Source: Escherichia coli (GTDB lineage: Bacteria > Pseudomonadota > Gammaproteobacteria > Enterobacterales > Enterobacteriaceae). From it: a stretch of 64,000 nt of DNA. Numbering within the stretch: position 1 is the first letter of the stretch; the number at the start of each line of letters is the position of its first letter. The position numbers are program-made. Location: assembly GCF_044324875.1 (NCBI RefSeq), contig NZ_CP172186.1. The stretch is one strand, 5' to 3'. This document shows, in pieces, positions 38,301-41,300 of the stretch.

Positions 38301-41300
38301 GTACAGTTCGGGCATCAGGATTATGCCGCTTTCCTCACAGAGAGGAATTATCGTAGCATTCCCCGTAGTGATGCCATGTGGCAACTGGCTGTCCAGCTGG
38401 GAAATAGTGGATTTATCAGGCCGCCGAAACTTACTCACGCTGATACACGTATTCGTATAGAGCCCTTTTTTAACGCTGAAAATGAATACGACTGACATCG
38501 CAAAATAGTGGTAAGGCCGTCGGGGGCGGCCTTACTCCTTTATCCTGCCCAGTCTTCCAGTACCAGTCCAGGCACCCGCTCAAACTCTCTCACATTATTC
38601 GTCACCAGTATTGCCCCGGTGGCGATGGCGTGCCCGGCGATCGCCGTGTCGTTCGGACCGATCGGCGTGCCGGCGAGGCGCAGCGCCACCTTAACCTCCG
38701 TGGTTGCATCCACCGCAGCGCGATCCCAGGGCAGGATGGCATCGAGACGGGCGCAGAACGCGTCAACCAGCTGCACGTGGCGTGGCGATGCCTTTGGACC
38801 GGTGGCGCCGAAGCGCATCTCGGAGTAGGTGATGGCCGAGACCACTATACGGTGACCGCGCAGCACCGCCTGCTCCAGATTCTTAAGCACTGCTTCAGGC
38901 TGCTCGCGCATGATGAACGAGCAGATGTTCGTGTCGAGCATATAGATCTTGTTCACAGGTTAAATCGTCCTTCGTCGCAGACAACGTCCTCGCGTTCCGT
39001 CATAAAGCCCGGATCGGCCTTTTCTAGCTCCAGGAATGAGCTCCAGCTCGGGCGGAGGGGACGCAGAATGATTCTGTCCCCTTCCCGTACAATCTCCAGC
39101 TCACTCACCCCCTCAAAATCCAGATCGCGGGGCAGACGGATCGCGCGGTTATTGCCATTTTTGAAAATAGATACGGTTCTCATGTCTTCCTCCTGGCAAG
39201 ATGGCTTTTATATATGTTTAGTATATGCAGATGTGATACATATGTATATGTTATAGATATGCAGATGTGTGAGATATGCGTATGCCTGTCATATGCAGAT
39301 GCCAAACATATGGATATGCATGGTATCTGCATGTTTCTCTCTTTTTTCACCGGGATCCGAAAAATATCAGTCACGGATCTTCCTCTCCCCCACACAACAC
39401 CACCTCCTGTAAGTACAACATGTAGTACTTCCTTCGGCTGCTCATGACACTATATGTTGTGTTATTTCCCTGACTTGTGATGCGCCACGCAGGGGCGGAA
39501 AACAGCGATATGATGATTTCCTCATCGTGTAGACTGGCCCCCTGAATCTCCAGACAACCAGTATCACTTATTTAAGTGATAGTCTTAATACTAGTTTTTA
39601 GACTAGTCATTGGAGAGCAGATGATTGATGTCTTAGGGTAAGCGTACAGCCTGAACCGTCTGGTCAGAATCTGACGAATTAGACAAAGTGGTGTCCACCA
39701 AATAAGTAGTGGGAACCAAAGTGTCAGATATGCAGAAAAATGTGACTCCCGGCAGGCGAAAAGGCTGCCCTAATTATCCTCCCGAATTTAAACAGCAGCT
39801 CGTTGCTGCCTCCTGTGAACCCGGGATATCCATCTCAAAACTTGCTCTTGAAAATGGCATTAACGCCAATCTGTTGTTCAAATGGCGACAACAATGGCGC
39901 GAGGGAAAGCTGCTATTACCTTCTTCAGAGAGCCCCCAGCTACTTCCTGTGACTCTCGATGCAGCTGCCGAACAGCCAGAATCGCTCGCAGAGGACCCGG
40001 AAACCCTCAGTATCAGCTGTGAGGTAACGTTCCGGCACGGGACGCTCCGCTTCAATGGCAATGTCAGCGAAAAGCTCCTGACTCTGCTGATACAGGAACT
40101 GAAGCGATGATCCCTTTACCTTCCGGGACCAAAATTTGGCTGGTTGCCGGTATCACCGATATGAGAAATGGCTTCAACGGCCTGGCTGCGAAAGTACAGA
40201 CGGCGCTGAAAGACGATCCCATGTCCGGCCATGTTTTCATTTTCCGGGGCCGCAGCGGCAGTCAGGTTAAACTGCTGTGGTCCACCGGTGACGGACTGTG
40301 CCTCCTGACCAAACGGCTGGAGCGTGGGCGCTTCGCCTGGCCGTCAGCCCGTGATGGCAAAGTGTTCCTTACACAGGCGCAGCTGGCGATGCTGCTGGAA
40401 GGTATCGACTGGCGACAGCCTAAGCGGCTGCTGACCTCCCTGACCATGCTGTAAATCTCTTTATCCTGGTTGTCACAGAATAAGCCCGGTAAAATACGGG
40501 CTTATGAACGACATCTCTTCTGACGACATCTTCCTGCTGAAACAGCGCCTGGCCGAACAGGAAGCGCTGATCCACGCCCTGCAGGAAAAGCTGAGCAACC
40601 GGGAGCGCGAAATAGACCATCTGCAGGCGCAGCTGGATAAACTCCGCCGGATGAACTTCGGCAGTCGTTCCGAAAAAGTCTCCCGCCGTATCGCACAAAT
40701 GGAAGCCGATCTGAACCAGCTTCAGAAAGAGAGCGATACGCTGACTGGTAGGGTGTATGACCCGGCAGTACAGCGTCCGTTGCGTCAGACCCGCATCCGT
40801 AAGCCGTTCCCTGAATCACTACCCCGTGACGAAAAGCGACTGTTGCCTGCGGCGCCGTGCTGCCCGAACTGCGGCGGTTCACTGAGCTATCTGGGCGAGG
40901 ATACCGCCGAACAGCTGGAGTTGATGCGTAGCGCCTTCCGGGTTATCCGGACGGTACGGGAAAAACATGCCTGTACTCAGTGCGATGCCATCGTGCAGGC
41001 ACCTGCACCTTCGCGGCCCATCGAGCGGGGTATCGCCGGACCGGGGCTGCTGGCCCGCGTGCTGACCTCGAAGTATGCAGAGCACACCCCGCTGTATCGC
41101 CAGTCAGAAATATACGGCCGGCAAGGTGTGGAGCTGAGCCGTTCACTGCTGTCGGGCTGGGTGGATGCATGCTGCCGGCTGCTGTCTCCGCTGGAAGAGG
41201 CGCTTCATGGCTATGTCATGACTGACGGCAAACTCCATGCCGATGATACCCCGGTCCAGGTACTGATGCCGGGTAATAAGAAGACGAAGACCGGGCGGTT

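Follow-up and report, generated by a model that had tools for sequence, protein, structure and literature searches.

Two vagCD-type vapBC toxin–antitoxin loci adjoin rfsF sites on an Escherichia coli virulence plasmid

The vagCD operon of Salmonella Dublin (S. Dublin) has its antitoxin gene first, with a 4-nt overlap between the two genes, and its plasmid carries upstream of the operon eight 17-bp units, a 28-bp core and a conserved block, the array of units standing between ccdAB–rsd and vagC. Of the related systems, the VapBC complexes of Shigella (mvpAT) and of Salmonella LT2 have been shown experimentally to use two operators, one over the −35 and one over the −10 element. Tyrosine recombinases and their resolution sites are known as ResD/rfsF in the plasmids F and R64 and as Rsd/crs in pSDL2; vagCD beside rfsF–resD has been described for IncR plasmids, for IncI1 and IncR plasmids an exchange of gene sets through recombination at rfsF has been proposed, and two vagDC copies are present in pEC958 (PMC4398462). 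Here we analyse two vapBC loci of the vagCD type in a 64-kb stretch (the window) of an Escherichia coli ColV/ColBM-like virulence plasmid of the avian pathogenic E. coli kind, which also carries an autotransporter gene, an iron ABC-transporter cluster and many insertion sequence (IS) elements. Judging from the sequence, we consider it probable that each locus is a vagCD-type VapBC toxin–antitoxin (TA) module joined at rfsF to a ResD multimer-resolution module.

The coordinates that an earlier note on this DNA had given for the two loci were right, and both pairs of open reading frames (ORFs) were located there on the minus strand. In copy 1, vapC (vagD-type PIN toxin, 38540–38956) encodes 138 amino acids (aa) with a PIN domain (Pfam PF01850, E = 7.6e-15) and vapB (vagC-type antitoxin, 38953–39183) encodes 76 aa with an N-terminal AbrB/MazE-type domain (PF04014, E = 3.6e-9). 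In copy 2, vapC (58877–59293, 138 aa; PF01850, E = 2.8e-15) and vapB (59290–59520, 76 aa; PF04014, E ~3e-9) match the same families. The antitoxin gene comes first in both loci and the GTG start of vapC overlaps the vapB stop by 4 nt. With a PIN and an AbrB/MazE domain in each, the two loci are vapBC paralogues, as the note had proposed, and they are vagCD-type VapBC type II TA modules. Their proteins are 87–95% identical to VagC and VagD of S. Dublin (for copy 1, 91% between VapC and VagD and 87% between VapB and VagC), and nothing essential differs from that system except that here two ~82%-identical alleles sit on one replicon and one of them is cut off from resD.

VapC could be aligned end to end with the structures of the Shigella and Salmonella VapC acting on tRNA(fMet) (E = 1e-25 to 3e-27), and the acidic positions of the DxxxE...D...E pattern are retained: D8, E46, D103 and E124 of copy 2 correspond to D7, E42, D98 and E119 of Shigella VapC, and copy 1 has the same residues. 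VapB could be aligned with the DNA-bound LT2 VapB (PDB 6IFM). By sequence, these loci thus share the folds of a PIN toxin and an AbrB-type antitoxin with Shigella mvpAT and LT2 vapBC, and as the promoter there is embedded in binding motifs, so the promoter-like site here lies among probable ones, whereas VapB is only 25–28% identical and VapC roughly half identical (a by-eye estimate from the alignment), and the two operator sites of those systems contrast with up to eight 17-bp units here. By relationship to the enteric VapC proteins that cleave tRNA-fMet, the toxin is presumably a PIN-domain RNase; VapB would neutralise it and would repress the operon through its AbrB-type N-terminal domain. 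By analogy with what is established for the family, vapBC may stabilise the plasmid through post-segregational killing.

The pairwise nucleotide alignment that the note had suggested as a check gave 81.6% identity over 996 columns (blastn, E = 0; 38548–39529 versus 58885–59867, ~980 bp), with 85–86% in the coding DNA and only 36–66% (50-bp windows) in the upstream array, where the two copies resemble each other least. The protein identity of about 92% claimed for the two loci holds for VapC (127/138, 92.0%) and is somewhat too high for VapB (68/76, 89.5%). To call them near-identical is wrong at the DNA level, where identity is 82% and no identical run exceeds 37 bp, the next longest being 32 and 29 bp.

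Beyond an A-rich stretch next to the array, both loci have a 28-bp palindromic element consisting of two 11-bp arms and a 6-bp centre, which we call the core. The core of copy 1 (c1, 39353–39380, minus strand) is AGATCCGTGAC-TGATAT-TTTTCGGATCC and that of copy 2 (c2, 59690–59717, minus strand) is AGATCCTGAAC-AACCTT-TTTTCGGATCT; their position weight matrix (PWM) scores are 29.9 and 36.7, respectively. The same element is found at nt 43,620–43,647 of R64 (NC_005014) and at nt 45,922–45,949 of F, in both cases with the central 6 bp TTGGGG. A comparison of IncI1 plasmids puts the start of rfsF at R64 nt 43,620 (PMC8004404), and in the pEC958 paper rfsF sites open the RepFIA region from F nt 45,922 and are followed by oriV-1, ccdAB and resD (PMC4398462). 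The site model returned four sites in the window, starting at 30447, 39353, 56402 and 59690 and all on the minus strand.

On the side of the core away from vapBC lies a block that is homologous to the rfsF–oriV1 region on the ResD side. Block 1 (39381–39529, minus strand) is cut by IS2 ~20 bp before its end, and block 2 (59718–59963, minus strand) is homologous to copy 1 up to 59867 and to R64 and ColBM plasmids up to ~59963. Within the block (~150 bp) are an inverted repeat, ACAACATATAGTG...CTACATGTTGT, and the 33-mer GGGGCGGAAAACAGCGATATGATGATTTCCTCA (GGGGCGG...CCTCA), which occurs exactly at 39492–39524 and 59830–59862. The best conserved part of the block is a 37-bp stretch, CGCAGGGGCGGAAAACAGCGATATGATGATTTCCTCA, identical at 39488–39524 and 59826–59862; F and R64 each have a single base changed in it, and in the S. 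Dublin plasmid it has diverged. The site of copy 2 is adjoined by resD (60495–61280, plus strand), a tyrosine recombinase gene with a Pfam Phage_integrase match, and at copy 1 IS2 stands in its place. The window ResD is 94% identical to ResD of F, 95.7% to that of R64 and 88% to its S. Dublin homologue Rsd. Compared with ResD/rfsF of F and R64 and Rsd/crs of pSDL2, the recombinase is thus 88–96% identical and the flanking block is homologous; relative to F and R64, the central 6 bp are different here, copy 1 is without a recombinase gene, and there are four sites in direct orientation. Between block 2 and resD lies orf137 (60080–60493, plus strand), a conserved hypothetical gene that had no match in Pfam or PADLOC. 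It stands ahead of resD in R64/IncI1-type backbones, among them R64, ColIb-P9 and pETEC_73; in F and in the S. Dublin plasmid this place is taken by ccdAB together with other ORFs.

F carries the core and the block directly upstream of ccdAB–resD, without vapBC and without the array, and R64 carries them upstream of orf137–resD. We also collected 120 metagenome contigs by the core pattern alone. The block was on the same side of the core in 74 of them, resD was found on the block side and transcribed away from the core in 55, and only 24 had the array and vapB on the opposite side. About 60 different central hexamers occurred among these 120 sites while the arms were conserved, and conserved arms with a highly variable centre are the pattern expected of a tyrosine-recombinase core. 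Because F and R64 have both elements without vapBC, because the published rfsF coordinates match and because resD is linked to the core in metagenomes, we assign core and block to ResD: they make up its resolution site with the flank of that site and are no element of vapBC. By these sequence criteria, the 28-bp core is rfsF, the predicted target of ResD. The order proceeding outward from each operon would accordingly be the array, rfsF and then ~150–250 bp of conserved sequence, the place at which ResD resolves plasmid dimers in F and R64. The suggestion of the note that the GGGGCGG block takes part in vapBC regulation has to be given up, since the homologous rfsF/oriV1 region of F and R64 has no vapBC.

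Natural plasmids show junctions at this site. The window and pPSJ-42_1 differ by one mismatch in 333 aligned columns through ISEc8, IS2, block 1 and the left arm as far as ...AGATCCGTGACTG, after which the two sequences are unrelated, and pPSJ-42_1 has another module in place of array 1 and vapBC 1. The IncI1 plasmid p10_578_2 is R64-like to the left of the core and copy-1-like to the right, the switch falling one base into the centre. Altogether three independent natural junctions fall inside the core. In a breakpoint census of 149 distinct sites, pairs with the same left flank and different right flanks first differed at core positions 11–13 in 20 of 29 cases, and pairs with the same right flank differed at positions 8–10 or 16. 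As far as can be read from such comparisons, the vapBC module has been exchanged between natural plasmids at the rfsF core.

The array itself most likely belongs with vapBC. Array 1 (39201–39336, minus strand) consists of eight 17-bp units in register (RCATMTRCATAT plus 5 nt) and includes a promoter-like site, TATACA-17-TATACT, running from 39248 down to 39220. Array 2 (59536–59675, minus strand) consists of five units spaced by 17 bp (59587–59675) and a proximal inverted repeat, GGATATG-N5-CATATCC (59536–59559), and has the same promoter-like sequence from 59625 down to 59597; here the promoter-like site stands ~44 bp farther from the ribosome-binding site than in copy 1. CATATCCATATG is present in both arrays. 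Allowing at most one mismatch, RCATMTRCATAT has 12 matches in the window, all of them inside the two arrays (expected 2.1 ± 1.6; 0 of 100 shuffles reached 12). The hexamer CATATG occurs 18 times in the window, three times in 39184–39345 and five times in 59521–59690, where ~0.045 per 160 bp are expected. The shared upstream CATATG arrays of the note are therefore real as an enrichment (8 of 18 sites), but they are shared less closely than the rest of the repeat.

To see the array in a wider context, we surveyed 80 vapBC loci from species-representative genomes, 79 of which were analysable. An extended array was present in 28, and only 8 of these 28 had the block or resD within reach; several lay on contigs of hundreds of kilobases. 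The motif accompanies vapBC across genera, and the distant vapBC loci of Vibrio and Photobacterium, which are without rfsF, have two CATATG-N5-CATATG pairs over a TTGACA −35 and a TATACT −10 element. In electrophoretic mobility shift assays (EMSA), Shigella VapBC shifts oligonucleotides that both contain ACATATCC, and the array motif overlaps the CATATCC motif of these oligonucleotides. Because the motif stays with vapBC where rfsF is missing, and because distant relatives have such motifs, and Shigella and LT2 their operators, over the −35 and −10 elements, the array is most likely a VapB or VapBC operator region, predicted from sequence, that in this plasmid lineage has grown to eight units. 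The earlier description of the arrays as operator-like is plausible on the same grounds, namely the promoter-like site inside each array, the retention of the motif near vapB in distant relatives and the overlap with the Shigella CATATCC. The promoter would sit within 17-bp units bearing CATATG or CATCTG, which are probable binding sites for the VapB dimers of a VapB4C4 complex.

The surroundings of the two copies differ. Copy 2 and its right flank (orf137, resD, parA, parM) have the arrangement of R64/IncI1 plasmids and of pETEC_73, and the copy-1 allele is found at 97% identity in IncFIA plasmids in the order vapCB–array–rfsF–block–ccdAB–resD; elsewhere, other plasmids carry one or the other allele alone, at 97–99% identity and each in a context of its own. 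On one side of copy 1, near vapC, the Pfam scan found an IS66-family transposase fragment (37845–~38305). On the other side is IS2 (39530–43310, plus strand), whose left end is at 39530 and which is split by a complete ISEc8 (39638–42079) flanked by an 8-bp duplication, GTCTTAGG, a clean insertion. Of the IS66 and IS2 debris that the note had placed around copy 1, the IS66-family fragment and the IS2 end are there, but IS2 is not debris, since it runs to 43310 with ISEc8 inside it. IS2 at 39530–43310 has no target duplication and its far end (43310) abuts unrelated DNA. The missing duplication suggests that the rest of the RepFIA-like region was lost and that the two flanks of IS2 were joined by deletion or by IS2–IS2 recombination. 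Copy 2 would then stand in an intact R64/IncI1-like arrangement, vapCB–array–rfsF–block–orf137–resD–parA, and copy 1 would be the remnant of a RepFIA-like vapCB–array–rfsF–block–ccdAB–resD after IS2 had removed everything past the block. Because the flanks differ and each allele has its own context in other plasmids, comparative sequence evidence identifies the two loci as alleles brought in by two backbone segments and not as a local duplication.

Several points weigh against joining a TA module and a ResD module at rfsF in this way. The PWM, which gave 0 hits in shuffled sequence, was trained on vapBC-adjacent sites. The pairs of the breakpoint census are not phylogenetically independent. 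The natural recombinants joined sites with unlike central sequences. Array and core also co-occur strongly, the core being found with 22 of the 28 extended-array loci and with 2 of 51 other loci, and Krause and Guiney (J Bacteriol, 1991) reportedly described crs of pSDL2 as containing eight incomplete 17-bp repeats. The distal array units may thus have a role in recombination, which we treat as a minor rival: the 17-bp array would be, or would also be, an accessory to the resolution site in the sense of crs, and would help ResD/Rsd to form a selective synapse directly or through bound VapBC. Beyond the co-occurrence, this idea draws on those relatives of vapBC whose proteins are similarly close but which have no core and keep the promoter-proximal units only, and on the S. 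Dublin plasmid, which, in keeping with that account of crs, has the same eight-unit array between ccdA–rsd and vagC. We nevertheless consider it unlikely, as F, whose accepted resolution system is ResD/rfsF, and R64 manage with rfsF and the block and no array, the other side is free of an array in 50 of the 74 metagenome cores that have the block, the array contains no GATCCG arm motif, and shared descent of one mobile module could explain the co-occurrence.

The remaining alternatives concern what the core, the array and the duplicate state are. The 28-bp palindrome could be a terminator-like hairpin or the end of an IS91-family element whose coincidence with module boundaries is accidental, and it is true that the two further cores of the window, c3 and c4, have an IS91-family-like transposase gene, or what is left of one, directly downstream. 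No T-run follows the stem, however, the coordinates published for rfsF in R64 and F fall on the core, resD is linked in 55 of 120 contigs and the three natural junctions lie inside the core, so that this account is very improbable; we rejected the terminator for want of a T-run and an IS91 end as an explanation for all cores. A recent duplication within the plasmid, kept for dosage and providing homologous repeats for a RecA-dependent 20-kb deletion, would fit the direct orientation and the ~980 bp of similarity. It hardly fits 81.6% identity and identical runs of at most 37 bp, nor flanks that differ and alleles that occur singly in their own contexts elsewhere, and given the identity and the unlike flanks it was rejected as highly improbable. 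Least of all do we credit the view that the array represents the replication iterons of an oriV1-like origin. Its regular repeat spacing and its position adjoining a region homologous to oriV1 of F are suggestive of iterons, but oriV1 of F has no such repeats, no rep gene lies beside either copy, and the array is also found next to chromosomal vapBC on contigs of 460–520 kb; the absence of an adjacent rep gene and of repeats in the homologous F region led us to reject it.

The two copies lie 20,337 bp apart and, both being on the minus strand, form direct repeats. The note had said that these 1-kb direct repeats 20 kb apart could recombine; orientation, length (~980 bp) and spacing (20.3 kb) are as it said, but the repeats are poor substrates for homologous recombination. 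Such recombination between the copies is unlikely because they are 82% identical and share no identical run longer than 37 bp. Divergence of this size reduces RecA-dependent recombination by orders of magnitude. Judged from the sites present, ResD acting at two direct cores, rather than RecA acting on an 82%-identical kilobase, is a plausible route to a 20-kb deletion. ResD at c1 and c2 would delete 39381–59717 and join block 2 to array 1 and vapBC 1. When we searched for this product, the best match was p10_578_2 (100% cover, 97.9% identity), which we rejected as a derivative of this plasmid, as it is an independent recombinant of R64-type and copy-1-type sequences. The deletion is probably held down by the differing centres of c1 and c2 (TGATAT versus AACCTT). 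Since natural recombinants have arisen across unlike centres, heterology is not an absolute barrier and such exchanges do occur over evolutionary time.

The eight differences between VapB1 and VapB2 are all at residue 37 or later, and residues 1–36, and with them most of the AbrB/MazE-type domain as Pfam delimits it (residues 6–47), are identical. Because the DNA-binding domains are identical over this stretch and motifs are common to both arrays, cross-regulation, or cross-repression, of the two systems, a question raised in the note, is predicted to be likely. Cross-neutralisation at about 90% identity is plausible from the sequences as well. In Shigella, single VapB substitutions alter the behaviour of the system, and DNA-bound VapB is protected from Lon (PMC11796401). 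Given this shielding of bound VapB, a long array could matter quantitatively.

The other two rfsF-like cores share their centre and right arm: c3 (56402–56429, minus strand) is CGATCCGACTT-AGCCGG-AAACCGGATCT and c4 (30447–30474, minus strand) is GGATCCACTTC-AGCCGG-AAACCGGATCT. They have the same orientation as c1 and c2, and their right flanks are homologous and enter the IS91-family-like transposase gene (55047–56339) or its IS-truncated remnant (~30256–30446). Between c3 and vapC of copy 2 lies an AAA ATPase gene (56577–58715, plus strand; 712 aa) with a full-length match to PADLOC PDC-S06 (E = 4.8e-286), so that the segment between c3 and c2 holds a candidate anti-phage defence gene together with vapBC. 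Across the whole of plasmid F the model gave exactly two matches, 41090–41117 and 45922–45949, on the same strand; the latter is rfsF, and the two, 4.8 kb apart, bracket the pif genes (phage T7 exclusion). Seventeen metagenome contigs carry two or three core-like sites at distances of 2–9 kb; neighbouring sites point the same way in 19 of 20 pairs. At secondary metagenome sites, the left arm is usually degenerate and the right arm (TTTTCGGATCT) is well kept. A Citrobacter freundii contig (2774–4300) has one vapBC with promoter-proximal units only, and a complete core with the start of an array ~800 bp downstream of vapC, possibly the beginning of a second, tandem vapBC module.

Short sites that bound small modules, often of the TA or defence kind, are familiar from the pdif modules of Acinetobacter plasmids and from integron cassettes, and in these the recombinase gene adjoins the primary site and is transcribed divergently. 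Here the recombinase is a different one and all sites have one orientation, and we draw on general knowledge of these systems as an analogy only and not as a classification. On this analogy, we put forward, tentatively and with considerable doubt, that direct rfsF-like sites beside a divergent resD bound cassettes, ResD/rfsF doubling as a platform on which IncF and IncI plasmids exchange TA genes and genes for defence, and the eight-unit VapB array might let the TA complex influence recombination. Examples would be vapBC with the PDC-S06 ATPase in the window and the pif genes in F; the single orientation of the four window sites, the two sites around pif, the co-oriented metagenome pairs and the recombinant junctions in the core speak for it. 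The plainer reading is that co-oriented rfsF-like sites are fossil junctions, the scars of past cointegrates.

Scanned in full against Rfam, the window gave no match upstream of either operon and only three ALIL elements elsewhere, pseudoknots that serve as IS3-family frameshift signals (17315–17431 and 34625–34741 on the minus strand, 47489–47575 on the plus strand) and reflect how rich in IS elements the window is. A second left end of IS2 is present at 6373–6402 (minus strand). Just past the IS66-family fragment, a 93-aa ORF (37512–37793, minus strand) resembles by eye the N-terminus of a serine recombinase of the resolvase/invertase type.

Modules of the vagCD type, their place next to rfsF–resD and the presence of two copies on one IncF plasmid are already known, because vagCD beside rfsF–resD has been described for IncR plasmids, rfsF recombination has been proposed for IncI1 and IncR plasmids, pEC958 has two copies, and the identical VapB and VapC protein accessions are annotated in thousands of plasmids. 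The finding as stated is real but ordinary and changes little. It does yield three corrections: the upstream block found at both loci is a dimer-resolution site rather than an operator of vapBC; the two copies show where two backbone segments of this plasmid meet; and for any loss of the 20-kb segment with its autotransporter and iron-transport genes, ResD acting at rfsF would be likelier than homologous recombination. If the cassette reading is true, co-oriented rfsF-like sites that bound TA and defence modules would bear on how plasmid accessory and defence genes are shuffled.

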